Assembly (NCBI GenBank): GCA_044222065.1
Contig: JBGAOA010000006.1
Location: forward strand, 23,129-87,128
DNA length: 64,000 nucleotides
Source of the DNA: Candidatus Eiseniibacteriota bacterium
Lineage (GTDB): Bacteria > Eisenbacteria > RBG-16-71-46
Direction of reading: 5' to 3'
In this document: one piece after another, positions 16,506-49,296 of the stretch
Layout: every line of letters begins with the position of its first letter
Numbering within the stretch: position 1 is the stretch's first letter
Notes under the pieces: model-generated
The model's input: only the letters and a program-made list of their open reading frames with translations
Told to the model about the DNA's origin: nothing
Database searches by the model: none
Position numbers and translations under genes: made by a program

Positions 16506-19349
16506 TCAGCGCCAGGAGTACGTGAACACCGCCTGCGCGTAACGGCTCAGCGCGCGGTCGCGCGTGTCCTGCACGTAGGTCTCGGTGAGGCTGCGGTTCA
16601 CGCTGCGGTTCGCGTCGAGGACGTCGGTCACGGTGAAGCGCAGTTCGCCGCGCTCGCCCTTCAGGAACTTCTTCCCGAGCGTCGTATTCCACATCACGAC
16701 GTCCTGCCCGTATGCCGAGGGCACGCCGCTCTGCAGCGCGTGCGTCAGTTCCTGCCGCACGACGAAGCCCTTGCCGACGACGGAATTGAAGCGGATCGCG
16801 GCGTTGTGGCTGAAGTAGTCGCCCGAGCTGCTCGTGCTGAGCGTGTTGCGCGCGATGTTGTAGCTCGCGAAGTACGACACGGTGAAGTCGAGGTTCTGGC
16901 TGATGTTGCTCGACAGCACCGCGCCGCTGCGGAGCGCCCACGTCGTGTTGAGGTTCGTCACGTCGTTGATCTTCGTCGGCGTGCGGTTGTACGACCCGCC
17001 GCCGTTGAGGGACAGCACGCTCTTGAGCAGCTTGAGCGGCCGGCTCACGACGCCGAACAGGTTTCCGTTCCACGACTCGCCCAGGTTCACGGGCCGCGTG
17101 AGCTGCGTGCCGCGCGCGAGGAACACGCCGTCCACGGTCGTGTCGGCGAGCGCCGTGAACGTCGCGTTCGCGATCGAGCGGGCCGTGCGCGACACGTTCG
17201 CGAACACGAAGCGGCTCTTCGACGCCATCGGCTCGGCTTCGGAGAAGCGCAGCGAGAAGTTGTTCGTGTAGGTCGGCCGCAGCGAGGGGTTCCCGGTCGT
17301 GAGCGACAGCGGGTTCGAGTTGTTCACGACGTTCTGCAGCTGCCCGATGTTCGGCGCGGCGGCCGACGTGCTCCACGCGAGTCGGAGGCTCCGGCGGTTC
17401 GCGAAGTTCCCCGTGAGCGTCACGGAGGGCAGTACGTCGCCGTACGTGCGGTCGATGCGCTGCGCGCCGGGGAAGGTCTGCTCGGATTCGAGCCGCTGGC
17501 TCTGGGCCGAGAGGTTCGTGAGCCAGCGCCACGGCCCCTTCGTGACGAGCATCGCGAGGCCGCCGTTCTGCACCACGTTGCGGCTCGCGTACACGTTCGA
17601 GAGCGCCGAGTCGGGGCGGGTGTACGCGCCGCTCGCCGGATCGAGCGCGAACGTGCGCGCGTCGGCGTCGCTCTTCGAGAACGACGGGTTGTAGATCGCC
17701 TGCAGCTGCACGCTCTTCGACACCGGCTCGGTGAACGCCACGCGCGCCGACCACGAATCCGTCGTCGTCGTCGAGTTCGAGCGCTGGTCGAGCGTGTCGC
17801 GCGTCGTGGTCGAGCCCTCGTAGTTCGTCGTGAGCGAGTACTGGCCGCCGCCGCCGTCGCGGTCGTTGCGCGAGGAGTTCAGGTCCGCGCTCACGTTGCG
17901 GCCGCGCTTCGCGAAGCGGTGGCGAAGCGTCAGGCGTGCGGAGAGGTTGCCGCCGTCGTTCGTGTCGGTCACGCGGCTCTCCGCCGCGCCGATCACGCCT
18001 CCGATCGTGGACAGGTTCGCGGCGGTGCCGAAGTTCGTCGCGTCGGTGCGCTGGAAGTAGGCGCGCGGCTGGAAGATCACCGAGTTGAGCGAGTCCGGAG
18101 TCCACTCGAGACGCGCATCCACGCGCTGGTTCGCGCTGCGATTGCCCGTCGTCGTGAGCTGGCGGTAGAACGCGAGCGAGTCCTGCGGCGGCACGTACTC
18201 GCGATCGAGCGACTGCAGGTTCTCGGTGTCGGTGTCGTTCACGAACACGCTCGAGCTGACCTGCACCTTCTTGCCCCACTGGCCGACGTAGTTGAAGCCG
18301 CCCGAGTGCGTCGTCGCGATGCCCGGCTGCTGGTCCACGAAGAAGCTGCTCGGATCGAATCCGCCGCCACCGCCGCCGCCCATGCGGATCATCTGCGGGC
18401 GGCCGCCGCCGGGACGGAAGCCGCCCGGACCGCCGTGCATGATGATGCGCGGGCCGCCGCCGCCGCCGCCCGAGCCGCTCATCGAGCCGAACAGGTCCTG
18501 CGGCGAGAAGTTCCGCTGGTTGATGTTGTTCGAGAGCCCGATCAGCGTGAAGCGCGTCGCGCCGCGCACCCAGGTCGCGTTTCCGCCCGTCTGGTAGCGC
18601 TCGTCGTCGCCGCCGCCCGCGTACACCTTGCCGAACGTCGCCTTCTGGTCGCGCAGGATGAAGTTCATCGTGCGCTGCGACTGCGTGTCGTCGAAGCCGC
18701 TGAACTCGGCCTGGTCGCTCATGCGGTCGTACACCTGGATGCGGTCCACGACCTCTGCCGGCAGGTTGCGCATCGCCGCCGTCGGATCGCTGCCGAAGAA
18801 CGGACGCCCGTTGACGAGCACCTGCTGCACGTTCTCGCCCTGCGCCTTCACCTGCCCGTTCTCCAGCGTCACTCCGGGCAGCTTCTGCACGAGGTCCTCG
18901 GCCGTCGCGTCGCGATGGGTCTTCACCGCGCTCGCCCGGTACTCGGTCGTGTCGGCCTTCTGCGTCGCCGGCGCCGGCGACTCCTGCACCGTGATGGGCG
19001 CGAGCTCGATCGAACGCGGCGCGAGCTTCACGTCGCCGAGGTCGTGGTCGGGCTTCGTCACGCGCACGACCTGGTGGAGCGTCTCGTAGCCGAGCCGGGA
19101 CGCCTCGAGCCGGTAGCTGTGCCTGCCGAGGCCCTTGAACTCGAACGCGCCGTCGTCACCGCCGGTCGCGCGCCGCACGTCGGACGTGTCGGCGAAGTTC
19201 GTGAGCTTGATCGCGACCCCGGGCACGGCCACGCCCGTCGACGCGTCCTTGAAGCGGCCGCGCAGCCTCGTGGTCTGGGCGGAAGCGAGCGAGGGAAGGA
19301 CGAGCAGCGCGCAGGCCGCCACGAGCCAGTGGGAGCGGACGGGCATCAC
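16506..19349 (-). CDS. TonB-dependent-receptor-like outer-membrane beta-barrel with N-terminal carboxypeptidase-regulatory-like domain
   Basis: Signal peptide. DTTEY.A...EDLVQKLPGV, VLVNGRPFFG.DP, DRIQVYD, GNPSLRP and terminal FTYSWR. Confidence 0.88.
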   Translation of the reverse strand: MMPVRSHWLVAACALLVLPSLASAQTTRLRGRFKDASTGVAVPGVAIKLTNFADTSDVRRATGGDDGAFEFKGLGRHSYRLEASRLGYETLHQVVRVTKPDHDLGDVKLAPRSIELAPITVQESPAPATQKADTTEYRASAVKTHRDATAEDLVQKLPGVTLENGQVKAQGENVQQVLVNGRPFFGSDPTAAMRNLPAEVVDRIQVYDRMSDQAEFSGFDDTQSQRTMNFILRDQKATFGKVYAGGGDDERYQTGGNATWVRGATRFTLIGLSNNINQRNFSPQDLFGSMSGSGGGGGGPRIIMHGGPGGFRPGGGRPQMIRMGGGGGGGFDPSSFFVDQQPGIATTHSGGFNYVGQWGKKVQVSSSVFVNDTDTENLQSLDREYVPPQDSLAFYRQLTTTGNRSANQRVDARLEWTPDSLNSVIFQPRAYFQRTDATNFGTAANLSTIGGVIGAAESRVTDTNDGGNLSARLTLRHRFAKRGRNVSADLNSSRNDRDGGGGQYSLTTNYEGSTTTRDTLDQRSNSTTTTDSWSARVAFTEPVSKSVQLQAIYNPSFSKSDADARTFALDPASGAYTRPDSALSNVYASRNVVQNGGLAMLVTKGPWRWLTNLSAQSQRLESEQTFPGAQRIDRTYGDVLPSVTLTGNFANRRSLRLAWSTSAAAPNIGQLQNVVNNSNPLSLTTGNPSLRPTYTNNFSLRFSEAEPMASKSRFVFANVSRTARSIANATFTALADTTVDGVFLARGTQLTRPVNLGESWNGNLFGVVSRPLKLLKSVLSLNGGGSYNRTPTKINDVTNLNTTWALRSGAVLSSNISQNLDFTVSYFASYNIARNTLSTSSSGDYFSHNAAIRFNSVVGKGFVVRQELTHALQSGVPSAYGQDVVMWNTTLGKKFLKGERGELRFTVTDVLDANRSVNRSLTETYVQDTRDRALSRYAQAVFTYSWR

Positions 19350-32057: not shown

Positions 32058-32216
32058 GGCGGGGGAGAGTAGGACAGCGCGCGCGACGAGGAAAGGCGGC
32101 GGCGCGCGCCCTCCGCGCGATCTTCCGACCGAGTGTCCCCCGCGTGACGGGGAATGCGTTGAGGGAGTGGGCGCGTTCGCCCGTTCCCGCCATCGCCCGC
32201 TCCGGAGGTGTCCCCG

Positions 32217-34814
32217 ATGCGCCCGACGATCCCGCTTCGCCGCACGTTTTCCTTTGCGCTGTTCGCCGCGCTCCTCGCCGCGTCCCCCGCCCGCGCCGCC
32301 TTCGTGGACACCGGCTTCGACGTTCCGCTGCTCAATCCGACCGCGTCGGCGTGGGGCGACTTCGACCGGGACGGCGATCTCGACTTCGTGCTCACCGGCC
32401 AGGACGGCACGCCGCCGTACACGCTGCGCGCTTTCGTGTTCCGCAACGACGCCGGCGCGTTCACCGACGCCGGCGCGGGCCTCACGGGGCTCGCGAACGC
32501 CGCGGCCGCGTGGGGCGACTACGACAACGACGGCGATCTCGACCTGCTGATGTGCGGGAACTCCTCGTCGCTCGGCGACGTGCCGACGACGCGGCTCTAC
32601 CGGAACGACGGCGGCGCGTTCACGAGCCTCGGCGCCGCGGGACTTCCCGAGGTGCGCTCCGGATCGGTGGCGTTCGGCGACTACGACCGCGACGGCGACC
32701 TCGACGTGCTGATCACGGGCTATCGCACGGTGCCGAGCTCCTCGCTCGTCGGCGCGATCTACCGCAACGACGGCGGCGTGTTCACCGACGCCGGCGCCGG
32801 ACTGCCGCCGCTCTTCTACTCGTCGGCGGCGTTCGGCGACTACGACGCGGACGGCGACCTCGACCTCGCGATCCAGGGCACGAATTCGTCGGTGAACCTC
32901 ACCCGCATCTACCGAAACGACGGCGGCACGTTCACGAACATCGCGGCGCCGCTCGTCGGACAGGAGGTCGGCGACGTCGCGTGGGTGGACTTCGACGGCG
33001 ACGGCGACCTCGACTTGTCGTCCACCGGGTTCGACGGCGCCGTGGAGGGGACGCGGCTCTATCGCAACAACGGCGGATTCACATCCGTCGCGACCGGGCT
33101 GCCGGGCGCTTCGCGTGGCGCGGCGTGGGGCGACTTCGACAACGACGGCGATCCCGATCTCGCGCTGACGGGCATCGGCACGACGCCGTCGCTCTCGCGC
33201 ATCTACCGCAACGACGGCGGCGGCGCGTTCGCCGACATCGCCGCGGGAATCGCGGGGACGCGCGCGTGCACGCCGGCGTGGGCCGACTTCGACGGCGACG
33301 GCGACCTCGACCTGCTGATCGCGGGCGGCGACGGCACGGGCGTGCGGAAGCTCTACCGCAACACGGGCGCGAGCGTGAATCACCCGCCGCAGCCGCCGTC
33401 GACGCTGATCGCGACCGAGTGCGTGGACGGCGAACTGAAGCTCCGCTGGGGCGTCGGATCCGACCTCGAGACGGCGGGGCCGGGGCTCACCTACAACCTG
33501 CGCGTCGGCACGACGTGGGGCGGGAACGAGATCGTGTCCTGTCCGGCCGACCCGGCGAGCGGACAGGCCCAGCTCGCGCAGCCGGGCAACGTCGGTCACG
33601 CGACGAGCGTCACGCTGGCGCTGCCGCCCGGCACCTACTACTGGACGGTGCAGACCGTGGACGGCGCGTTCCTCGGTTCGGACTTCGCGCCCGTGCACGT
33701 TGTGCAGGCGCCGTCGGTGGACGGCGCGTGGAACGCGGCCGAGGGCCCGCCCTCCGTCACGCAGTCGCTGCAGACCGGGTTCGGCGATGCGTCGCTCGGA
33801 CTGCCCGACTTCGCGAACGGCTCCGAGCTCGACGGCGCGTACGCGCGGCTCGACGACTGCGCGCTGCACCTGTTCCTGCCGGGGAACCTCGAATCCAACT
33901 TCAACAAGCTCGAGCTGTTCTTCGACACGCTGCCCGGCGGCCAGAACCAGCTGCGCGGGGACAACGCGAACGTGGACTTCGACGGACTCAACCGCATGGG
34001 CGACGACGGCAGCGGGAACGGGCTGCGATTCGATCCCGCGTTCGAGCCGGACTTCTACGTCACGTTGAGCGGCGGCGACGCGGGCGGCGACTACACGCTG
34101 TTCGCGAGCTGGGCGGAGCTGCTGAGCGCGGGCGGCGGACTCGGACGCTACCTCGGCAGCACGACGCCGCCCTCCAACGGCGCGCTCGCCGGCGGCGACA
34201 ATCCCGACGGCATCCTCGCGACGATCGACAATTCGAACACGGCCGGCGTGACGGCCGGTACGGGCGGCGCGTCGGGCTCTGGAGTCACGACCGGCGTCGA
34301 GCTCGTGATTCCGCTCGCGTCGCTCGGAAACCCGACGGGCTGCTTCGAGGTGTGCGCATTCGTGAACGGCTCGGGGCACGACTTCGTCTCGAACCAGGTC
34401 CTCGCCCCGCTCGTCGCTCCGCAGGGCAACCTCGGCGAACCGCGCAACGTGGACTTCGGCCGCTACGCGGGAGAGCAGTGGTTCTCGGTGTGCCCGGGCG
34501 CGACCGCGGACGTTCCGGCGGGCCCCGCCGCCTCGGCGACGCGCGGACGACTCTCGGCGTTCCCGAATCCGATGCGCGCGTCGTCGCTCGTGCGCTTCGA
34601 ACTCGCGCGTGCGGGGGAGGCGAGCGTCGAGCTGTTCAACGTGCAGGGGCGGCGCGTGCGGCGGCTCGTATCCGGCGCCTTCGACGCGGGTCCGCACCAG
34701 GCGCTCTGGACCGGCACGGACGACTCGGGCCGCGCGCTCCCGAGCGGCGTCTACTACGCGCGTCTCCTCGCGCCGGGCGAGCGCGCGTCGCACGCGCTGA
34801 TCCTGCGGCGCTGA
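32217..34814 (+). CDS. Secreted FG-GAP/VCBS-repeat protein with FN3-like, unknown and FlgD-Ig-like C-terminal domains
   Basis: Signal peptide. Seven A(W/F).D(F/Y)D.DGD.D repeats with YRN-type ends. C-terminal PNPM...W.G.DDSG...SGVY. Confidence 0.88.
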   Translation: MRPTIPLRRTFSFALFAALLAASPARAAFVDTGFDVPLLNPTASAWGDFDRDGDLDFVLTGQDGTPPYTLRAFVFRNDAGAFTDAGAGLTGLANAAAAWGDYDNDGDLDLLMCGNSSSLGDVPTTRLYRNDGGAFTSLGAAGLPEVRSGSVAFGDYDRDGDLDVLITGYRTVPSSSLVGAIYRNDGGVFTDAGAGLPPLFYSSAAFGDYDADGDLDLAIQGTNSSVNLTRIYRNDGGTFTNIAAPLVGQEVGDVAWVDFDGDGDLDLSSTGFDGAVEGTRLYRNNGGFTSVATGLPGASRGAAWGDFDNDGDPDLALTGIGTTPSLSRIYRNDGGGAFADIAAGIAGTRACTPAWADFDGDGDLDLLIAGGDGTGVRKLYRNTGASVNHPPQPPSTLIATECVDGELKLRWGVGSDLETAGPGLTYNLRVGTTWGGNEIVSCPADPASGQAQLAQPGNVGHATSVTLALPPGTYYWTVQTVDGAFLGSDFAPVHVVQAPSVDGAWNAAEGPPSVTQSLQTGFGDASLGLPDFANGSELDGAYARLDDCALHLFLPGNLESNFNKLELFFDTLPGGQNQLRGDNANVDFDGLNRMGDDGSGNGLRFDPAFEPDFYVTLSGGDAGGDYTLFASWAELLSAGGGLGRYLGSTTPPSNGALAGGDNPDGILATIDNSNTAGVTAGTGGASGSGVTTGVELVIPLASLGNPTGCFEVCAFVNGSGHDFVSNQVLAPLVAPQGNLGEPRNVDFGRYAGEQWFSVCPGATADVPAGPAASATRGRLSAFPNPMRASSLVRFELARAGEASVELFNVQGRRVRRLVSGAFDAGPHQALWTGTDDSGRALPSGVYYARLLAPGERASHALILRR

Positions 34815-36896: not shown

Positions 36897-39800
36897 ATTC
36901 CGCGCGAGTACGAGCCGTCGGGTTTCTTCGCGCTCCGCGCGCCCCTGTTGCCGTTCACGGACTGGCTCGCGTGGGGCGACGGCGCCTCCGCCGCGGACGC
37001 ATCCGAGGGCGCGTGGCGCGCGGCGCGCGACCGCGGACGCGCGTGGCTCTCGAGCCGTCTCGAGGACCCCGTCGTGCGCGAGGCGATCGCGCTCGCGTCG
37101 CCCGACCTCGATGCGCGCATCGGCGCCTGGCGCGCCGATCCCGACGCCGAGCCCGGCGTCGAGGCGGGGCTCGTCAAATACGTCTCGCGCGCGTGCGTGC
37201 GCGCGACGCCGTTCGGCACGTTCGCGGCGACCTCGCTCGGCGCGCTCGGGAGCACGACGCGCCTCGCCTTGCCCGCGCGCGACGGATCGCGCCGCCACAC
37301 GCGGCTCGACATGGACTTCCTGAGCGAGCTCGTGGCGCGGCTCGCGTCGGACCCGGAGGTGCGCGCGCGCGTGCCGTTCGCGCCGAACTCGAGCCTCTAC
37401 CCGGCGGGCGACGCGCTGCGTTACGCCGAGGCGCGCCGCGTCGCCGGGGCGCGCGCGTACTTCCTCGTCGAGGTCGAGGCGAACGACGCCGTCACGGCCG
37501 CGCTCGAGGCGTCGAAGGGCGGGGCGACCCTCGAGGCGATCGCGCGCGCGCTCGCCGATCTCGGCGTCGCGCTCGAGGACGCGCGCGAGTTCGCGGGACA
37601 GCTCGCCGACGCGCAGCTGCTCGTCGCCGACCTCGGCCCGCTCGTGACCGGCGCGGACGCGCTCGAGGACCTGATCGCGCGCCTCGCGCGCCACGCGCCA
37701 GAGCATCCGGCTCACGCGGGCCTGCGCGAGGCGCGCGCCGCGCTCGCGGCGCTCGACGCGCGCGGACTCGAGCGCCGCGCGCGTCGTACGACGCACTCGC
37801 GGAGCGGCTCCGAACGCTCGCGCCCGTCGATCCGGCCCGGCTCGTCCAGGTGGACCTCTATCGCGGTGGCGATCCGCCGGAGCTCGACCGCGGCCTCGTG
37901 CACGAGCTGCTGCACGCGGCGGAGACCGTGATCGCGCTGTTCGCGAAGGGGCACGCCGATCCGCTCGCGGCGTTTCGCGACGCGTTCGAGCGGCGCTATG
38001 GCGACCGCGAGGTGCCGCTCGTCGAGGCGCTCGACGAGGAGCTCGGCATCGGCTTCGAACCGAGCTCCGGGCCCGCGAGCGATCCGTCGCCGCTGCTCGT
38101 GGGACTGCCGTTCACGCCGCCCGAGGAGGAAGGTCGCGTGCCGTTCGGCTACCGCGCGCAGTTCGTGCAGTGGAAGCTCGCCGAGGCGATCGCCGCCGGG
38201 GCCGAGGAGCTGCGGCTCGATCCGCGCGAGCTCGAACGTTTCGCCGATCCCGACGCGCCGGGACTCGGCGGCGCGTTCCACCTGCTCGCCTCGCTGCTCG
38301 CGCCCGACGCCGCGGATACGGACGCGCCGCGGGCGCTGTTCGATTCGGCGGCCGGTCCGTCGGGCGCGCGGCTGCTCGGGCGGTTCGGCTTCGGGGACCC
38401 CGCGCTCGCCGAGCACGTGCGGGCGCACGTGCGGCGCGAGGAGGCGCTGCGGCCCGACGTCGTCTACTTCGAACTCGTTCACCTGCCCGAGGGCCGCGTC
38501 GGAAACATTCTCGCGCGTCCCGTGCTCCGCGAATTCGAGCTCGCCTACCTCGGCGCCTCCGGCGCGCCGCCCGATCGCACGATCTCCGTGCTCGACCTCA
38601 CCGTGCGGCTCGAGGGCGGGCGGATCGCGCTGCGATCGCGCGCGCTCGGACGCGAAGTCCGGCCGCGGCTCTCGTCGGCGCATTACGCGGGCGCGCGCAG
38701 CCTCGGGCTCTACCGGTTCCTCACCGCGCTCCAGGCCGAGGGTGTCGTCGAGGGCGCGGCCTGGCACTGGGGGCCGTTCGAACACCAGCCGCGGCTGCCG
38801 CGCGTGCGCATCGGGCAGGTCGTGCTCGCGCGCCGGCAGTGGAACGCGCGTCGCGACGAAGCCCGCCGCCTGCGCGAGCACTCGGGCCACGCGGCGTTCC
38901 TCGAGGCGGGCCGGTGGCGCGCGGCGCGCGACGTGCCGCGGTTCGCGGGCCTCGTGCACGCGGACAACGTGCTGCCCGTGGATTTCGATCAGCCGCTGTC
39001 GGTCGCGGCGTTCCTCGACGCGCTCAAGGGCCGCGACGGCTTCTCGCTCGTCGAGCTGTTCCCGGGCGCGCGCCCCGACGCCGCGCGCTCGCCCGAAGGC
39101 GGCTTCACGAACGAAGTCGTGATCCCGGTCGTGCGCGCGCCGGCCTCCGCGGCGGCGGCGCGCGAACCGGCGCGCGGCGGTCACGTCGATCGCGGGGCCC
39201 TCGGCCCGGGCTTCGCGCCCGGTTCGGAATGGCTGAGTGCGAAGCTCTACGGCGGTCCGAAGGGCGTGGATCGCGCGCTCGTCGAGGCGCTGCGCCCGGC
39301 GCTCGCGACGCTCGTGGACGCGGGCGACGTGCGGCGCGTCGAGGCGCGCGTCAGTGCGGGCTCGCGACGCTCGTGGACGCCGGCGACGTGCGGCGCGCGT
39401 TCTTCGTGCGCTACGCCGATCCGGGCTGGCACGTGCGCGTGCGGCTGCACGGCGAGCCCGCGACGCTGCTCACACGCGCGCTGCCGGCGCTGCGCGCCGC
39501 CGCCGCGCCGCTCTTCGACGCCGGGGTGCTGCACGCGCTCGAGCTCGCGCCCTACCGGCGCGAGATCGTGCGCTACGGCGGGCCGGCCGCGATCGAAGCG
39601 TGCGAGGCGCTGTTCCACCACGACTCGCTCGCCGCGCTCGACGTGCTCGCCGGTGCGCCCGGGGAGCGCGGCCTCGAGGCGCGCTGGCGCCTCGCGCTCG
39701 TCGGCACCGACCGGCTGTACGCCGACTTCGGACTCGACGACGGCGCGCGCCACGAACTCTCGGGCCGGCTCGCGCGCGCGTTCGCCGCCGAGTTCCACGC

Positions 39801-40173
39801 CGACTCCGCCGCCCGTCGCGCGATGATGGCGCGCTATCGCGAGGTGCGCGCGGCGCTCGCGGCGCTGCTCGACGGCGACGCCGGCGGCGACGACGCGCTC
39901 GCGCACGGCCTGCGCCGGATCGAGGCGCGCTCGCGCGCGAACGCCGCGCCGATCGAGGCGCTGCGCGCCCTCGATCGCGATCGTCGGCTCGGCGTGCCGC
40001 TCGAGGAGATCGTCGCGAGCCTCGCGCACATGCACGCGAATCGCGTGCTGCGCTCGTCGCAGCGCGCGCAGGAAATGGTGATCCACCACTACCTCGAGAA
40101 CCTCTACGCCGCCCGGCGCGCGCGCGCGGCGCACGGCGTCGCCGCGACACCCGGCGCGGGAGGGACGCCGTGA
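36897..40173 (+). CDS. lanB: Class I lanthipeptide dehydratase LanB (glutamylation and elimination domains); frameshift at ~37780 and a 59-nt-offset duplication at ~39300-39400
   Basis: FFALRAPLLP, EAIALASPDL, KYVSRACVRATPFGTFA, GPSGARLLGRF, GNILARP, PRLSSAH and DNVL, then WLSAKLYG, FFVRYADP..HVRVR, YRREIVRYGG, FHHDS and SLAHMHANR. Confidence 0.92.
39281..39397 (+). repeat. Imperfect tandem duplication inside lanB
   Basis: GCTCGCGACGCTCGTGGACGC(G/C)GGCGACGTGCGGCGCG at 39301-39338 and 39360-39397, each preceded by GTCGAGGCGC. Offset 59 nt. Confidence 0.85.
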
Positions 40174-40728
40174 GCGACGGTCGCGACCGGCTCGACCCGC
40201 TGTTCCGCCCCGAAGCGCTCGAGCACGCGCTGCGGGGGCGTTCGAGCGGCGCGCTGCTGCGGCTCTCGCCGGCGTGGAAGCACTGGGCCTTCGGCGTGCT
40301 CGTCGCCGCGTTCGCAGGCGCGCTCGTGCTCGCGGCGCGCGTGCCGTTCGGCGCGGACGTCGCGGGCCCCGCGCGCATCGTGCGCGCGCCCGACGGGCTC
40401 GAAGCCGTGCGCCTGCTGCCCGCGGGCGCGCGCGCTGCGCCCGGGGCAGCGCGCGTGGCTGCGGCTCGAACGCGCGAACCGAACGGCGGCCGCGGCGTCG
40501 GTCGTCGGCGTCGGCGGCGAAGCGCTCGGCGCCGAGGGCGTGCGGGCCGCGCTCGGCGAGGACGCGCGCGACCTGCCGCCGTTCACGCCGCCGGTCGTCG
40601 TCGTGCGGGTCCGCTTGAACGCGGGCGCCGGCGCCGAGTTCGTGCCGGGGACGCACGCGCGGGCCTCGGTCCGCGTCGGCGAGCGGACGCTGCTCCAGGC
40701 GCTGCGGTTCCCGGACGCGACGCGATGA
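40170..40728 (+). CDS. Short HlyD-like peptide-secretion accessory membrane protein (frameshift at ~40430)
   Basis: GTGA overlap with the lanB stop and ATGA overlap with the exporter start. LFRPEALE N-terminal motif, one TM, and C-terminal PGTHARASVRVGERTLL. Confidence 0.7.
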
Positions 40729-42902
40729 GGCTCGAGTTCTCGAGGCCGCGGCTGCCGCACGTGCAGCAGCTCCACCTCGCCGACTGCGGACCCGCGTGTC
40801 TCGCGATGGTGCTCGGGCTGCACGGCCGGCACGGTTCCGTGGACGAGGTGCGCGAGCGCTTCGGCGCCGGCCGCGACGGCGTTTCGGCGTACGACATCCT
40901 CGAGGCGGCGCGGACGTTCGGCCTCGCGGGCCGAGCGGTGCGGCTCGAGCTCGCGGACCTCGCGCTGCTGCCGCGCGGCGCGATCCTGCACTGGCGCATG
41001 AACCACTTCGTCGTGTTCGACCGCGTGCGGCGCGGCGGCATCGCGATCGTGGATCCCGACGGCGGCCCGCGCTTCGTCGCCGCCGAAGAGCTGTCGCGCG
41101 CTTTCACGGGCGTGGCGCTCGTGCTCGAGCCGACGGACGCGTTCGAGGTGCGCTCGCGCGAGGCGTCGCGGCTCTGGGCGTACGCGCGCCGCGTCGCGCT
41201 GCGCTCGGGGCTGCTCGGCCGCGCGCTGCTCTTGTCGCTGCTGCTGCAAGTGCTCGCGCTCGCGCTGCCGCTCTGGACCGGCGCGATCGTGGACCGCGTG
41301 CTCCCCGAGGCGGACGTGCCGCTGCTCGGCGTGCTTTCGGCCGGCATCGCGGTGCTCGCCGTCTACGCGTTCTTCGCCGCCTACGTCCGCGCGCACCTGC
41401 TGCTCGCGCTGCGCACGCGGCTCGACCTCGAGATGTCGGTCGGCTTCCTCGAGCATCTCCTGCGCCTGCCGTTCGCGTTCTTCCAGCTGCGCCAGACCGG
41501 CGACCTCGTGATGCGGCTCAATTCGAACGCCGTGATCCGCGAGTCGCTCACCTCGGGCGCGATGACGGCGGCGCTCGACGGCCTGCTCGTCGCCGGCTAC
41601 CTCGTCGTGATCCTCGTGACGCACCCCGGGCTCGGGCTGCTCGTCGTCGGCCTCGGCGCGATCCGCGTGCTCGTGTTCTTCGCCTCGCAGTCGCGCTACC
41701 GCGCGCTCATGGGCGAGGCGCTGCAGGTGCAGGCCGATTCGTCGAACCACCAGGTCCAGATGATCGAAGGCATCGAGACGCTCAAGACGTCGGGTGCCGA
41801 GCGCCGCGCGAGCGAGGTGTGGACGAACCTGTTCGTGGACGTCCTGAACGTCACCGTGCGGCGCGGACGTCTCGCCGCGCTCGTGGACTCGCTGCTCCAC
41901 GCGCTCGAACTCGCCTCGCCGCTCGTCGTGCTCGCGGTCGGCACGCAGCTCGTGCTCGACCAGCGCCTGTCGCTCGGCACGATGCTCGCGATTTCGGCGC
42001 TCGCCGCGGCGTTCCTGCAGCCGCTCGGCAGCCTCGTGACGACGGCGCTCGAGTTCCAGCAGCTCGGCAGCTACGTCGACCGCGTCGACGAGGTGCTGAA
42101 CCGCCCCGCCGAACAGGACGCGGCCGCGCCGCCCGCGCCGACGCTCGAGGGCGCGCTCGAGCTCGAGGACGTGTGCTTCCGGTACTCGGAGCGCGGGCCG
42201 CTCGCGGTGGATCACGTCACGCTCGCGATTCCGCGCGGCGCCGCGGTCGCGATCGTCGGTCCGTCGGGATCGGGAAAGAGCACGCTCGCGCGGCTCGTCG
42301 CGGCGCTCTACCGGCCCGAGTCCGGCGCGGTCCGCTTCGACGGCGCCGACCTGTCGTCGCACGACGTCGTCTCGCTGCGGCGCCAGATCGGATTCGTGCC
42401 GCAGCACCCGTACCTGTTCGGGGCGACGATCCGCGAAAACATCGCGATGGCCGACGCGGACGCCGACGGCGAGGCGATCGCGCGCGCGGTGCGCGAGTCG
42501 GACCTCGGCCGCGATCTCGAGGCGATGCCGCTCGGGCTCGACACGCACCTCACCGCGGGCGGCACGAACCTCTCGGGCGGCCAGCGCCAGCGCATCGCGA
42601 TCGCGCGCGCGTTGCTGCGCTCGCCGGCGCTGCTCGTGCTCGACGAGGCGACGAGCCACCTCGACGCGCGCTCCGAACACCGCGTGCACGAGCACCTGCG
42701 CGCACGGCGGGCGACGCGCCTCGTCATCGCGCACCGCCTCTCGACGATCCGCGACGCCGACCTGATCGTCGTGATGGACCGCGGGCGCGTCGTCGAGCAG
42801 GGCACGCACGACGCGCTCGTCGCGGCGAACGGGCTCTACGCCGAACTCATCCGGCCGAATCGAGCAGCAGAAACCGATCCCACTCCGGCGCGCGGCGGCT
42901 GA
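40725..42902 (+). CDS. lanT: Peptidase C39-containing ABC exporter (LanT/PCAT)
   Basis: QQLHLADCGPACLAM (catalytic Cys), ILHWRMNHFVV, six-TM domain, GPSGSGKST, LSGGQRQRIAIAR, LDEATSHLD. Confidence 0.95.
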   Translation: MRLEFSRPRLPHVQQLHLADCGPACLAMVLGLHGRHGSVDEVRERFGAGRDGVSAYDILEAARTFGLAGRAVRLELADLALLPRGAILHWRMNHFVVFDRVRRGGIAIVDPDGGPRFVAAEELSRAFTGVALVLEPTDAFEVRSREASRLWAYARRVALRSGLLGRALLLSLLLQVLALALPLWTGAIVDRVLPEADVPLLGVLSAGIAVLAVYAFFAAYVRAHLLLALRTRLDLEMSVGFLEHLLRLPFAFFQLRQTGDLVMRLNSNAVIRESLTSGAMTAALDGLLVAGYLVVILVTHPGLGLLVVGLGAIRVLVFFASQSRYRALMGEALQVQADSSNHQVQMIEGIETLKTSGAERRASEVWTNLFVDVLNVTVRRGRLAALVDSLLHALELASPLVVLAVGTQLVLDQRLSLGTMLAISALAAAFLQPLGSLVTTALEFQQLGSYVDRVDEVLNRPAEQDAAAPPAPTLEGALELEDVCFRYSERGPLAVDHVTLAIPRGAAVAIVGPSGSGKSTLARLVAALYRPESGAVRFDGADLSSHDVVSLRRQIGFVPQHPYLFGATIRENIAMADADADGEAIARAVRESDLGRDLEAMPLGLDTHLTAGGTNLSGGQRQRIAIARALLRSPALLVLDEATSHLDARSEHRVHEHLRARRATRLVIAHRLSTIRDADLIVVMDRGRVVEQGTHDALVAANGLYAELIRPNRAAETDPTPARGG

Positions 42903-44129
42903 CCGCCGCGACGAGCGCGAGTCCCGTGCCGGCGGCGCCCGTGAGGAGCCCCGGATCCTCGACGTACTCGCCTTCGCGCCGGCGCTCGAATCCGAACGTC
43001 GCGAAGCCCGCGACGTTCGGCCGGTCCGCGACGCGTTCGAGGGCGCGCTCGAACCACGCGAGCGCAGCGTCGCGGCAGACGGGATCGCCGCTCGCGCGCC
43101 ACAGCCGGTGGAAGACGTGCGCGACGCCCGCGGCGCCGTGGCAGAGCCCGGCGTCCACGACGCCGGACGATTCGACCGGACGCCGCGCCGCGGCGTGCGC
43201 GACGTCCAGCGCGAACGCGCGCAGGGCCCGGTCGTCGAGCGATTCGCCCGCGGCGGCGAACGCCGCGGCGACGCCGGGGTCGCCGTAGCACCACGCCACG
43301 CGCGCGGGCTCCGCACGATGTCGTGGGCGACGTAGTCGGGGAACGCGCCCGCGGCGCCGGCCGGGAGCCGCTGCGCCGCGAGCCACGCGGCGCCCGCGGC
43401 GAGCAGGCGGTGCGCGCGGGCGCGCAGCTCCGGGAACGACGCGAGCCGCGCGAGGATCGCGAGCACGCCGGGGACGCCGTGCGACAGCCCGAGGTTGAAG
43501 TACGTGTCCTCGGGCGCGACGTGGTCGGCGAGTGCGCGGCGCGTCAGCTCGCCGCTCGGCCACGAGAGCCCGGCGGACTGCGGCCGCGCGAGGCGCTCGA
43601 GGTGGTCGAGCACGGCGCCCGCGAGCGCCGGGCCCGTCGGCCGCGCCCGCCGCTCGAGCGCGAGCACGCCGAGTCCGGCGAGTCCGCCGATCAGGTCGAA
43701 GTCGGGGCGGAAGCCCGGATCGGCGAACGCGTCGAGCAGCGTCGCGTCGATGTCCGCGACGGGGTCGTCGTCACCCGCCTCGCCCGTGACGCGCAGCACG
43801 TGCTCGGTCGTCCACGCGATGCCCGGGAAGCCGCAGAACAGCGAATGGTCGAGCGTCTCCTCGGGGATCCGCTCGATCGCCTCGGACAGGAACGCGAGCG
43901 CGTGCTCCTTCGCCGCCGCCTCGCCGAGCGCCGCGAACCTCCACGCGTGGAACAGCGCGATGCCCGAGCGTCCGAGCGCGAGCGAGGTCGTGCGGACGCC
44001 GTTCTTCGGCGCGTCGCGGGCGATGTCCCAGCGGTCGAACGGCCGCGCGAGCGCGTCGCCCAGCTCGGCGATGCGGCGATGCGCTTCGCCGGCGAGCGCG
44101 CCGTCGAGCAACGGAGCGTCGAACGTCAC
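42847..44129 (-). CDS. lanC: Lanthionine cyclase LanC (one frameshift at ~43310)
   Basis: SLFCGFPG, FDLIGGLAG and NLGLSHGVPG (ORF ending at 44129), then RVAWCYGDPG, AGLCHGAAG and GLLTGAAG (ORF 42847). Zn ligands are present. Confidence 0.92.
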
Positions 44130-44152
44130 GGGAGGCCGCGGGCCGCAGACGC

Positions 44153-44185
44153 GACGAGCGGCCTCGCGAAGCGAGACCGCTCGTC
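44153..44185 (-). promoter_or_regulatory. Stem-loop between lanA and lanC
   Basis: Minus strand GACGAGCGGTCTCGC-TTC-GCGAGGCCGCTCGTC, a 15-bp stem with one G-U pair and no U-tract. Confidence 0.7.
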
Positions 44186-44205
44186 ACGCAGACGCGATCG
44201 CTCGA

Positions 44206-44361
44206 TCAGCAGAAGATCGGGCAGGAGAGGCGCGAGCTCGTGTGCGTGCAGGGGCAGCTCTTCGTGAGCGCCGCGCCCTCGACGCGCTTGGTCTCGGCTT
44301 CCGTGAGGCAGCGCAGCGTTTCGCGGTTCAGCTCGAGCTTCTTGATCGTCAGCTTCTGCAT
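44206..44361 (-). CDS. lanA: Lanthipeptide precursor LanA (51 aa)
   Basis: Manual translation: MQKLTIKKLELNRETLRCLTEAETKRVEGA-ALTKSCPCTHTSSRLSCPIFC*. GGAGGAG SD, directly upstream of lanC. Confidence 0.92.
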   Translation of the reverse strand: MQKLTIKKLELNRETLRCLTEAETKRVEGAALTKSCPCTHTSSRLSCPIFC

Positions 44362-44424
44362 GGAACTCCTCCGGGGTGAGAAGGACCGCTGGAACGCGCG
44401 TCTCTCGAGCGACGCGCGGGCCGG

Positions 44425-46515: not shown

Positions 46516-49296
46516 ATGCCGATCTCCGTTTCGTGCTTCGCCCGCTCGAGCGTCCTCGCCGCGCTCTCGCTCTCGCTCCTCGCCGCGCGTCCGGCGCTCG
46601 CGGTTCCGCACGGCGGAGGCCCCGACGTCCTGGTCGGCGTCTCGCGCGCGCTCGGCCAGCCGAACGACGTCGACCTCGCCTTCACGAGCGGCGCGTACGC
46701 GTTCGCGTGCGCCCAGCTCGACGACCCGCTCGCGGGCGGCAAGGTGGTCGTCTACCTGTCGCGCGACCGCGGCGCGACCTGGTCACCGTGGACGTTGCTC
46801 GGCGATTCCGACTTCGATCTCACGACCGGCTATTACGAGCCGTCCCTCTACGTCGCCGAAGGAACGACGCCGCGCCTGTTCGTCGCGTTCCGGCACACGT
46901 TCATCGTGGGCGCGAGCACCTTCAGCAACATCGAGGTGATGCGCGCCGACCTCGGCGCGACGGGGCCCGGCTCGACCTCGACTTCGACCGCGATGTCGTC
47001 GTCCGGAGTGTCGTTCCGCCGGCCCGACGTCGCCGCCGACGACCGCACGACGCCGGCCTACACCGTGCACGTGATCGCCGAGGCCGCCGACGGCACGGGC
47101 ACCGACATCTGGGTCGCGCGCTCGACGAATCAGGGCGTGGCGTGGGCCGCCGAGTACGCGATCGCCTCCATCACGTCGGCCTTCGGCGGCAACGACCGCT
47201 ACCCGCGCATCGCCTGCGGCAGCGCCGGCTACGTGCACGCGACCTGGTCGTTCGCGCCGAATCCGATCGTCGGCGGCTCGCGCACCGTGGTCTACCGTCG
47301 CGCGAACGGTGGCGCCGCCGCGATCGGAAACTGGTTCGCGCCCGTCACGATCGCGACCGACTTCTACGTGAGCGACATCACGGCGGCCCCGACGGGCGGC
47401 AAGGTCACGATCTCGGCCACGCCGATCGGCGCCGCGACGAATCCGTGGTTCTTCACGTACCAGGCGGACGGCGCGGCGGTGTTCGGCAGCGGCACGAGCG
47501 CGCTGCTGTACGGTCCCGCGGGCGTCGCCGACTTCGACGGCGCCGGCGCGTTCGTCGCCGGCGTGCGCCTCGCCGACGGCCGGGTCCGTCTCGGTCAGTC
47601 GATGGCGGACACGCTCTCGGACGCCGCCGTCGCAGTCGTCACCGACGACCGCACGGTCGTCGCCGCGCTGACGAGCCCCTACGCGGACGCCGGCTCGGTG
47701 TGGATCGCGCCCGGCTCGGGGGCGGGCGACACGCTCCGGTTCGACGCGAGCTACTTCCTGCGCCCCGCGTTCCCGCGCCACTTCCGCACGAAGGTCCTCG
47801 CGGACCCGCCGGTCACGCCGCCGACGCTCGCTCAGCTCGACGCCGATCCCGAACTCGAGATCGTGTACGGGGACGCGACGGGCAAGGTGCACGTGCTCGA
47901 AGCCGCCGGCGCCGAGAAGGCGGGCTGGCCGTACTTCGCCGGCAGCCTCGCGACCGACGCGACGATCGCCGTCGGCGACGTGGACGGCGACCACGAGAAC
48001 GAAGTGGTCGTCGGGAACCTCGCGGGCCAGGTCATCGCGCTGAACGCGGACGGCTCGCTCCGCGCCGGCTTCCCGAAGTTCGTGAACACGGGCAAGAGCG
48101 TGCACGTCTCGCTCGGCGACCTCGTCGGCGACGCGCGCGCCGAGATCGTCGCGTGCGCGGGGAACCAGGTGCACGTCTACGACGGCGGCGCGAACGAGGC
48201 GTCCGGCTTCCCCGTGTTCACGACGGTCTCCGTCGACATCAAGTGCCCGGCGTCGATCGGCGACCTCGACGGCGACGGCCACCGCGAACTCGTCGTGCTC
48301 ACCGACGGCTCGATCCGCTGGTACTCGAACGACGGCACGCTCGGCGTGCTGCGTTCGATCGCGGGCACGGTGTTCGAGGAGCCGGCCTCGCTCGCCGACG
48401 TGGACGGCGACGGCGATCTCGAGATCGCGACCGCGACGACCGCGGGGCGCGTGGACCTCGTGGATCACGCGACGCTCGCGGACCGCACGGGATGGCCGTA
48501 CCTCGCGACGAACCCCGTGTACGGGGTGGCGTTCGGCAAGGTCTCGGACCCGGAGCCGCTCGGGCTCGCGTTCCTCGCCGGCGGCAACGTGCACCGCATG
48601 CGTCCCGACGGCACGCACGTGGGCGCCGTCTACAACGTCGGCGCGCTCGCGCACGGCGCGGCGCCGGTGATCGCGGAACTCGACGGCTTCGGCGGCGCCC
48701 GCGAACTCGCGTTCGGGAGCCCCGACGCGCAGTACCGCGTGACCGACGACGGGCCGTCCTACGCCGCGTTCTGGCCGATGCCGGCCGGCGACGTCGTCGA
48801 CGACATGGCGGCGATGGGCGACCTCACCGCGAGCGGGAACACGCACCTCGTGTTCCTGAACCACGCCGGGCTCGACGTGTTCGAGCTGAACCAGCCGCTC
48901 ACGACGGCCGACCTGCAGACGTCGTGGCCGCAGTACGGGTACGACGCCGGCCACGCGTCCTGCTACCGCTGCGGCGGCTCGGCCACTGTCGGCGTGCCGG
49001 ACGAAGGCGCCGCGTCGGCCGCGCTCGCGCTCGCCGCGACGCCGAACCCGTCGCGCGGCGCCGCGACGCTGTCGTTCTCGCTCGAGCGCGGCGGCGAGGC
49101 GACGCTCGCGATCCACGACGTCGGAGGGCGCGTGGTGCGCCGGATCGCATCGGGCCCGCTCGCCGCCGGCGCGCACCGCGTGACGTGGGACGGCCGCGAC
49201 GAGCAGGGGCGCGACGCGGCTCCCGGCCTGTACTTCGCACGCCTCGCGCTCTCGGGCGAGCGCGCCGTCGCCGCGCGGATCGTGCGCGTACGGTGA
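46516..49296 (+). CDS. Secreted BNR/Asp-box + FG-GAP-repeat protein with FlgD-Ig-like C-terminal domain
   Basis: Signal peptide. SRDRGATW and STNQGVAW Asp-boxes. GDVDGD, GDLDGDG and ADVDGDGD repeats. PNPS...WDGRDEQG...GLYF. Confidence 0.85.
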   Translation: MPISVSCFARSSVLAALSLSLLAARPALAVPHGGGPDVLVGVSRALGQPNDVDLAFTSGAYAFACAQLDDPLAGGKVVVYLSRDRGATWSPWTLLGDSDFDLTTGYYEPSLYVAEGTTPRLFVAFRHTFIVGASTFSNIEVMRADLGATGPGSTSTSTAMSSSGVSFRRPDVAADDRTTPAYTVHVIAEAADGTGTDIWVARSTNQGVAWAAEYAIASITSAFGGNDRYPRIACGSAGYVHATWSFAPNPIVGGSRTVVYRRANGGAAAIGNWFAPVTIATDFYVSDITAAPTGGKVTISATPIGAATNPWFFTYQADGAAVFGSGTSALLYGPAGVADFDGAGAFVAGVRLADGRVRLGQSMADTLSDAAVAVVTDDRTVVAALTSPYADAGSVWIAPGSGAGDTLRFDASYFLRPAFPRHFRTKVLADPPVTPPTLAQLDADPELEIVYGDATGKVHVLEAAGAEKAGWPYFAGSLATDATIAVGDVDGDHENEVVVGNLAGQVIALNADGSLRAGFPKFVNTGKSVHVSLGDLVGDARAEIVACAGNQVHVYDGGANEASGFPVFTTVSVDIKCPASIGDLDGDGHRELVVLTDGSIRWYSNDGTLGVLRSIAGTVFEEPASLADVDGDGDLEIATATTAGRVDLVDHATLADRTGWPYLATNPVYGVAFGKVSDPEPLGLAFLAGGNVHRMRPDGTHVGAVYNVGALAHGAAPVIAELDGFGGARELAFGSPDAQYRVTDDGPSYAAFWPMPAGDVVDDMAAMGDLTASGNTHLVFLNHAGLDVFELNQPLTTADLQTSWPQYGYDAGHASCYRCGGSATVGVPDEGAASAALALAATPNPSRGAATLSFSLERGGEATLAIHDVGGRVVRRIASGPLAAGAHRVTWDGRDEQGRDAAPGLYFARLALSGERAVAARIVRVR

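Follow-up and report, generated by a model that had tools for sequence, protein, structure and literature searches.

The 51-residue open reading frame lanA, found within the window (the whole stretch of 64,000 nucleotides of Candidatus Eiseniibacteriota DNA analysed here), is very probably the structural gene of a class I lanthipeptide. In relatives with intact gene clusters its product would be modified by LanB and LanC, cut after Gly-Ala by LanT and exported. The lanA family has been automatically annotated but is unstudied, and it belongs to a kind that is already known, the class I lanthipeptides with double-glycine (GG) leaders. The features of the cluster are collected in Table 1.

Table 1. 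Position of lanA, its parts and the surrounding cluster genes in the window
Feature	Position	Strand	Remarks and basis
lanB, dehydratase (Lant_dehydr_N + Lant_dehydr_C)	36948..40173	+	Three frames; Pfam
Imperfect tandem duplication in lanB, 59 bases (about 57-59)	39338..39396, region 39281-39397	+	Offset comparison
Small adaptor-like gene (~185 aa in relatives)	40170..40728	+	One membrane helix; frame broken near 40433
lanT (C39 peptidase, ABC membrane and ABC ATPase domains)	40725..42902	+	One intact frame
lanC, cyclase	42847..44129	-	Two frames, break near 43311
G+C-rich stem-loop, 19-bp central stem	44144..44194	-	Between lanA stop and lanC start
lanA, 51-aa precursor gene	44206..44361	-	ATG start; ORF listing, alignment, selection test
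lanA leader	residues 1-30		LxLxRx5L box L9..L19; predicted cleavage after G29-A30
lanA core	residues 31-51
Shine-Dalgarno sequence GGAGGAG	44366..44372	-	4 bases upstream of lanA ATG; read from sequence

lanA is a coding gene under purifying selection

The translation of lanA in the ORF listing is MQKLTIKKLELNRETLRCLTEAETKRVEGAALTKSCPCTHTSSRLSCPIFC, in which KKLELNRETLRCL occupies residues 7-19 and VEGA residues 27-30. The 21 residues that follow Gly-Ala comprise four Cys, four Ser and three Thr, with S-C-P occurring twice and Cys as the last residue. The open reading frame, leader motif, VEGA site and core composition given by the first-pass annotation of this DNA agree exactly with the sequence. 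The peptide has no match in Pfam. A search for paralogs in the window's own genome returned only two weak matches (E 0.36 and 0.77), which were taken as chance.

Genomes as rich in G+C as this one (74%) contain many spurious open frames, and lanA might be regarded as one more of them. The probability of such an origin is practically nil, and the conservation data already refute it: in addition to the ribosome-binding site, there is a G or C at the third position of 49 of the 51 codons (96% GC3, as compared with 0.94-0.98 in neighbouring genes), 16 relatives are found, the synteny is conserved and pN/pS lies at 0.1-0.3. The selection test compared the DNA of the window and of 13 related loci in 91 pairs. 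Since the median pS was 0.466 against a median pN of 0.099, with window-versus-relative pN/pS ratios of 0.11-0.31, lanA is a real coding gene under purifying selection.

The leader and core are conserved in 16 relatives

A word-indexed search of 5.8 billion proteins found 16 other proteins with 70-91% identity to the lanA peptide, all of 50-66 residues, and these were aligned with the window's own peptide. In the leader, L9, L11, R13, T15, L16, R17, L19, T20, E21, E23, K25, R26, E28, G29 and A30 are invariant in the 17 proteins; in the core the same is true of C36, C38, H40, T41, S42, S43, R44, S46, C47 and C51. The almost invariant core pattern across the family is C-P-C-T-H-T-S-S-R...S-C-x-I-F-C, and the variable stretch consists of the few residues directly after Gly-Ala. 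In the alignment of the selection test, locus L011 has Thr instead of Ser at position 46, which keeps a dehydratable residue, as would be expected if this position must be dehydrated. Of the 17 aligned proteins, 15 share the leader Cys at residue 18 (LRCL) and two have N or A instead; a separate NCBI record, P0030, has Ser there.

The first-pass annotation described an LxLxKx5L leader. The box is indeed present, as L9-E-L11-N-R13-ETLRC-L19, with R replacing the K of the consensus, and L9, L11, R13 and L19 are all invariant. Position -4 from the predicted cut is Val and positions -12 and -15 are Leu, which we take to fit the hydrophobic positions of double-glycine leaders. The NCBIfam model NF038153 (lant_leader_L1a) aligns at its positions 7-31 of 32 with the leader of the window peptide, scoring 15.7 bits (E 0.012), under the 22-bit cut-off; across the family, 12 of the 17 members reach E <= 1 with this model, the best value being 7.9e-6.

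When 1.84 billion representatives were searched with a profile, 59 matches reached E <= 1e-3 and only four clusters E <= 1e-10. Of the weaker matches, 37 of the 59 were viewed; most of these share mainly the leader and carry other Cys/Ser/Thr-rich cores, which the core of lanA does not resemble. Among the 37 viewed, C-x-C-T-x-T-S is retained in P0031, P0032, P0034, P0037 and P0039, which also have Cys as the last residue or adjacent to it; of these, P0031 and P0032 are without C47.

The gene had been called unannotated at first, which does not apply to the family: two NCBI family records, whose cores depart from that of the window only at core position 15, with Thr in place of Leu, already bear the automatic label 'class I lanthipeptide'. 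The statement that the core matches no recognised product agrees with a literature search, in which no paper contained any of four core strings of lanA. Further literature searches found no report pairing Eisenbacteria with lanthipeptides or Gemmatimonadota with a class I lanthipeptide, and among papers on the expression of MAG-derived lanthipeptides they found nothing relevant, judging by titles and the beginnings of abstracts.

Five genes are conserved in related loci of three phyla

A scan of one genome per species recovered 13 loci related to that of the window: eight in Candidatus Eisenbacteria MAGs, three in Gemmatimonadota or Gemmatimonadales, one in Krumholzibacteriota and one in an unclassified 'bacterium'. 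In their common layout, the group of lanA, hairpin and lanC faces that of lanB, the small HlyD-like gene and lanT (C39-ABC) in convergent orientation. The gene lanT is present in 11 of the 13 loci and lanB in nine, all absences being at contig ends, and the small gene lies between lanB and lanT in all nine loci that reach that far. The genes flanking the cluster are not common to the related loci, and therefore the conserved unit consists of five genes: lanA, lanC, lanT, the adaptor gene and lanB. No LanD, LanP or LanFEG is found in this conserved set. In the window the cluster is flanked by two large proteins with FG-GAP repeats and a FlgD Ig-like domain at the C-terminus (32208-34814 and 46516-49296, both on the + strand), of which only the C-terminal domain recurs near some loci (L009, L010 and L015).

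In the phylum of the window the lanA peptide occurs in 12 of 206 genomes (including the window's own) and in six of 83 genera. Such patchiness, combined with the occurrence of the family outside this phylum, suggests transfer. Two to three lanA matches each are found in genomes G144 and G145 of the same phylum. The Gemmatimonadales locus L012 contains a second precursor gene just upstream of lanB (17505-17657, + strand), with the same leader and a different core, CCPCTGTSTIGPTQPMVC; this core is related, contains CPCTGTS and ends in Cys. The window's stretch or part of it is contained in 20 public runs from 17 studies, and those with a recorded habitat come from sludge, bioreactor, biofilm or wastewater. 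The lanA family is common to a few uncultured wastewater and soil bacteria.

Modification and export genes surround lanA

Separate lanB and lanC genes lie beside the precursor gene, with their frames broken in this assembly. The Pfam matches of lanB are PF04738 (E 5.6e-50 and 2.3e-77) and PF14028 (7.9e-52), and lanC matches PF05147 in two parts (E 1.5e-18 and 2.1e-11), with the H of SHG, the C of WCYG and the CHG motif all present. On lanT, PF03412 is matched at E 2.4e-29, and the Cys and His of the C39 peptidase are found in DCGPACL and NHFVV; E28-G29-A30, the predicted cleavage site of this protease, is invariant in the precursors. The convergent lanC and lanT genes overlap by 56 bases at their 3' ends (42847-42902), and they overlap in relatives too, by ~32 bases in L005. 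In DNA runs, the summed contig depth at 42422-42672 of the window is 20-40x that of neighbouring bins. This is no copy-number signal, because the conserved ABC ATPase part of lanT attracts contigs of many organisms.

The small gene between lanB and lanT has a GTG start that overlaps the lanB stop and a stop that overlaps the lanT ATG, and is in this way translationally coupled to both. It is fast-evolving, with an invariant start F-R-x-E-A...S-P-x-W in the window and in loci L005, L009, L010 and L012-L016; the alignment omitted L011, where this N-terminal motif is not apparent in the frame shown. It had no match in Pfam or NCBIfam and only matches at E >= 0.32 among profiles of solved structures, and a search of proteins of near length returned its own record and one relative at 63% identity, with nothing else. 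In a protein atlas its nearest neighbours are short 'HlyD family secretion protein' clusters with LcnD_C or AprE beta-barrel domains (feature score 0.92, structure TM 0.63-0.72). As a lead only, the gene may encode a shortened periplasmic adaptor of the HlyD/LcnD type for the exporter.

The G+C-rich stem-loop between lanA and lanC folds at -51.3 kcal/mol (z = -4.04), and none of 200 shuffled sequences was equally stable. Each of the 13 related loci forms a hairpin in the corresponding position, although the sequences differ, with z <= -2.9 in 10 of the 13 (100 simple shuffles each) and non-significant values in L009, L010 and L016. From its position, the hairpin may be an attenuator or a stabiliser of the precursor transcript, and it probably sets the ratio of precursor to enzyme transcripts.

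lanA resembles class I precursors with double-glycine leaders

The initial view of lanA as a class I lanthipeptide precursor with a GG-type leader is supported by the LanB, LanC and C39-ABC neighbours and by their conservation in relatives. Residues 1-30 would be the leader, in which a recognition box of the Bacteroidota type, LxLx(K/R)x5L, precedes an E-G-A end of the double-glycine type, and residues 31-51 the core, which is conserved and rich in Cys (four) and Ser/Thr (seven). In the intact relatives, full-length LanB would dehydrate Ser and Thr of the core by means of glutamyl-tRNA, and LanC, whose zinc ligands are present, would then add Cys thiols to form thioether rings. LanT, together with the small HlyD/LcnD-like adaptor, would cut after Gly-Ala and export a peptide of ~21 residues. 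From dehydration and ring formation to the cleavage site and export, we infer these steps from sequence.

The same gene order might be read differently. There are unmodified peptides, too, with GG/GA leaders and C39-ABC exporters, and the four Cys could form two disulfides, so that the product might be an unmodified or disulfide-only double-glycine bacteriocin or signal, with LanB and LanC acting elsewhere. We consider this quite improbable: in each of the 13 loci lanA immediately precedes lanC, and lanB is present wherever the contig is long enough; a second precursor-like gene is found in only one locus, L012; and the conserved T41, S42, S43 and S/T46 of the core adjoin conserved Cys.

Taking lanA as a lanthipeptide precursor, its closest known counterparts are the class I LanAs of Bacteroidetes. 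For these, the part of Walker et al. 2020 (PMC7268733) consulted here describes a leader with an LxLxKx5L box, which often ends in Gly-Gly, and clusters that include a C39 protease; pinensin is placed in family I_17. The window cluster resembles that group in encoding LanB and LanC separately, in the leader box and Gly-Gly-type end of its precursor, and in containing a C39 protease. It differs by having R for K in the leader and a G-A instead of a G-G end. Moreover, the group is described in that text for Bacteroidetes, whereas the hosts of the lanA family are Eisenbacteria, Gemmatimonadota and Krumholzibacteriota MAGs. The LanB of pinensin is split, according to the same portion of PMC7268733, whereas the relatives of lanA have one full-length lanB gene, in a single frame in eight of nine loci, and the splits in the window are frame breaks inside domains rather than a division of the pinensin type.

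Viridisins, thalassomonasins and Ped15.1/15.2 are described, in the excerpt of PMC9680876 used, as Gram-negative class I lanthipeptides with double-glycine leaders. They share with the lanA family a LanB/LanC pair directed by a conserved double-glycine leader, and the host phyla differ; this comparison is one of leaders, enzymes and hosts.

The dehydratase and cyclase logic is the same as in class I lantibiotics of the nisin/epidermin type, unlike which lanA is without an FxLD-type leader box and its cluster without conserved LanP, LanD and LanFEG. The lipid II motif of the nisin/gallidermin group, SxxxCTP(G/S)C as quoted in the consulted part of PMC7268733, was absent by eye from the 21-residue core. 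As to an epidermin-type AviCys, the C-terminal Cys of lanA is invariant, and the conserved set comprises lanA, lanC, lanT, the adaptor and lanB only. The T-x-S-C-x-C of the window core has what we take to be the spacing of the last two, interlocked rings of nisin, and the T-x-S spacing is not conserved across the lanA family.

Ring pattern

Sixteen aligned members have the C-x-C-T block, and in eight of them there is only one Ser or Thr between the cleavage site and the two Cys. Consequently, no more than one of the two Cys of these eight could form an ordinary ring, in which the dehydro residue is N-terminal to the Cys, and four ordinary N-to-C rings cannot be the rule of the family. In these eight members, as read from the alignment, the other Cys would have to link to the downstream T39, T41, S42 or S43, stay free or pair as a disulfide. 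The proposal of up to four thioether rings in the first-pass annotation is thus possible, with the reservation that in half of the relatives it needs at least one ring of non-standard direction.

A more far-reaching idea is that the family represents a new lanthipeptide scaffold, with an invariant C-x-C-T-H-T-S-S block in which rings of the usual direction cannot form. At least one Cys of the C36/C38 block would then react with a dehydro residue C-terminal to it, remain free, form a disulfide or act together with the invariant His in metal binding or a cross-link of another kind. We regard this as doubtful. If it were true, a compact, interlocked or metal-binding peptide would have been passed between three phyla of uncultured bacteria.

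Frame breaks in the window: error or decay

Four frame breaks interrupt the cluster in the window, two in lanB (near 37769 and at the 59-base insertion), one in the adaptor gene near 40433 and one in lanC near 43311. At the insertion, a 38-base repeat (39301-39338 versus 39360-39397, 37/38 identical) duplicates the peptide LATLVDAGDVRR and shifts the frame; the relative L005 has 15 bases at this site versus 74 in the window. The duplication was unreported by Tandem Repeats Finder and was found by offset comparison. The middle of the two copies differs, and they could be an old duplication or two alleles joined in assembly. As lanB, the adaptor and lanC are out of frame and the genome of the window has no second LanB or LanC, this genome, as assembled, is predicted to be unable to make the lanA product.

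If the four breaks are real, lanA would be a member of the family but a relic in this strain: the cluster would be decaying, no modified peptide would be made, and lanA and lanT would be intact only since they have not yet been hit. We give this explanation a substantial chance, although somewhat below even. The four breaks fall within ~5 kb of cluster genes, while rpoB and rpoC (7.9 kb) are unbroken, each in a single frame, and the same holds for lanT and five large neighbouring genes, with ~12.7 kb of neighbouring genes in single frames in the Pfam-searched region. The assembly is therefore not generally error-prone or indel-ridden, and the breaks may be real decay. Moreover, a 59-base imperfect duplication is no simple base-calling slip, and there is no back-up for the broken LanB and LanC. 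In the related loci, the LanC halves are in a single frame in 11 of 11 and L012 is the one exception for LanB, the N-terminal part of its lanB (~16981-17358) aligning in two frames. Given this frame change, the window may perhaps not be the sole member with a disrupted dehydratase.

Contigs from four public runs (X1, X2, X3 and X15) compared with the cluster region speak against such decay. One contig of X3 has an additional G after 37769, which restores the frame of lanB; one contig each of X2 and X15 has an additional G after 43311/43312, restoring lanC; and one contig of X15 has GCGCA inserted after 40433, restoring the adaptor gene. Each of these contigs has a depth below 5, which is flagged as a possible error. 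However, it is unlikely that insertions located exactly at three of the four predicted break points are an accident, and their presence in near-identical DNA of other samples implies that intact alleles exist in the population. In X1, the run that best holds the region, the listed contigs end at or beside all four break sites, which fits differing alleles or difficult assembly. Furthermore, the pN/pS test revealed no relaxation of constraint in lanA itself.

Among the listed contigs of X1, X2, X3 and X15, none bridges the site of the 59-base duplication. The protein collection contained no full-length LanC closer than 76% identity, a result of little weight since the contigs there are short. 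The RNA-library run X15 has contigs on parts of lanB, on the lanB-lanT stretch and on lanC, and no listed piece covers lanA; such contigs cannot show transcription.

Biological significance

Class I clusters with GG leaders are common in Gram-negative and uncultured lineages, so the cluster described here is an ordinary kind of system that reveals no new principle, and it serves as one further candidate for heterologous expression. It combines a conserved, uncharacterised core with hosts from understudied phyla. The shortage of Ser and Thr before the CxC makes the ring pattern worth solving, the ring logic of C-x-C-T-H-T-S-S being the one unusual point of the family. Should the peptide be produced, then, going by the literature searches above, no earlier lanthipeptide would be on record for Eisenbacteria and their neighbours, which are phyla that have no cultured representatives. 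The near-invariance of its core across three phyla argues for a specific target.
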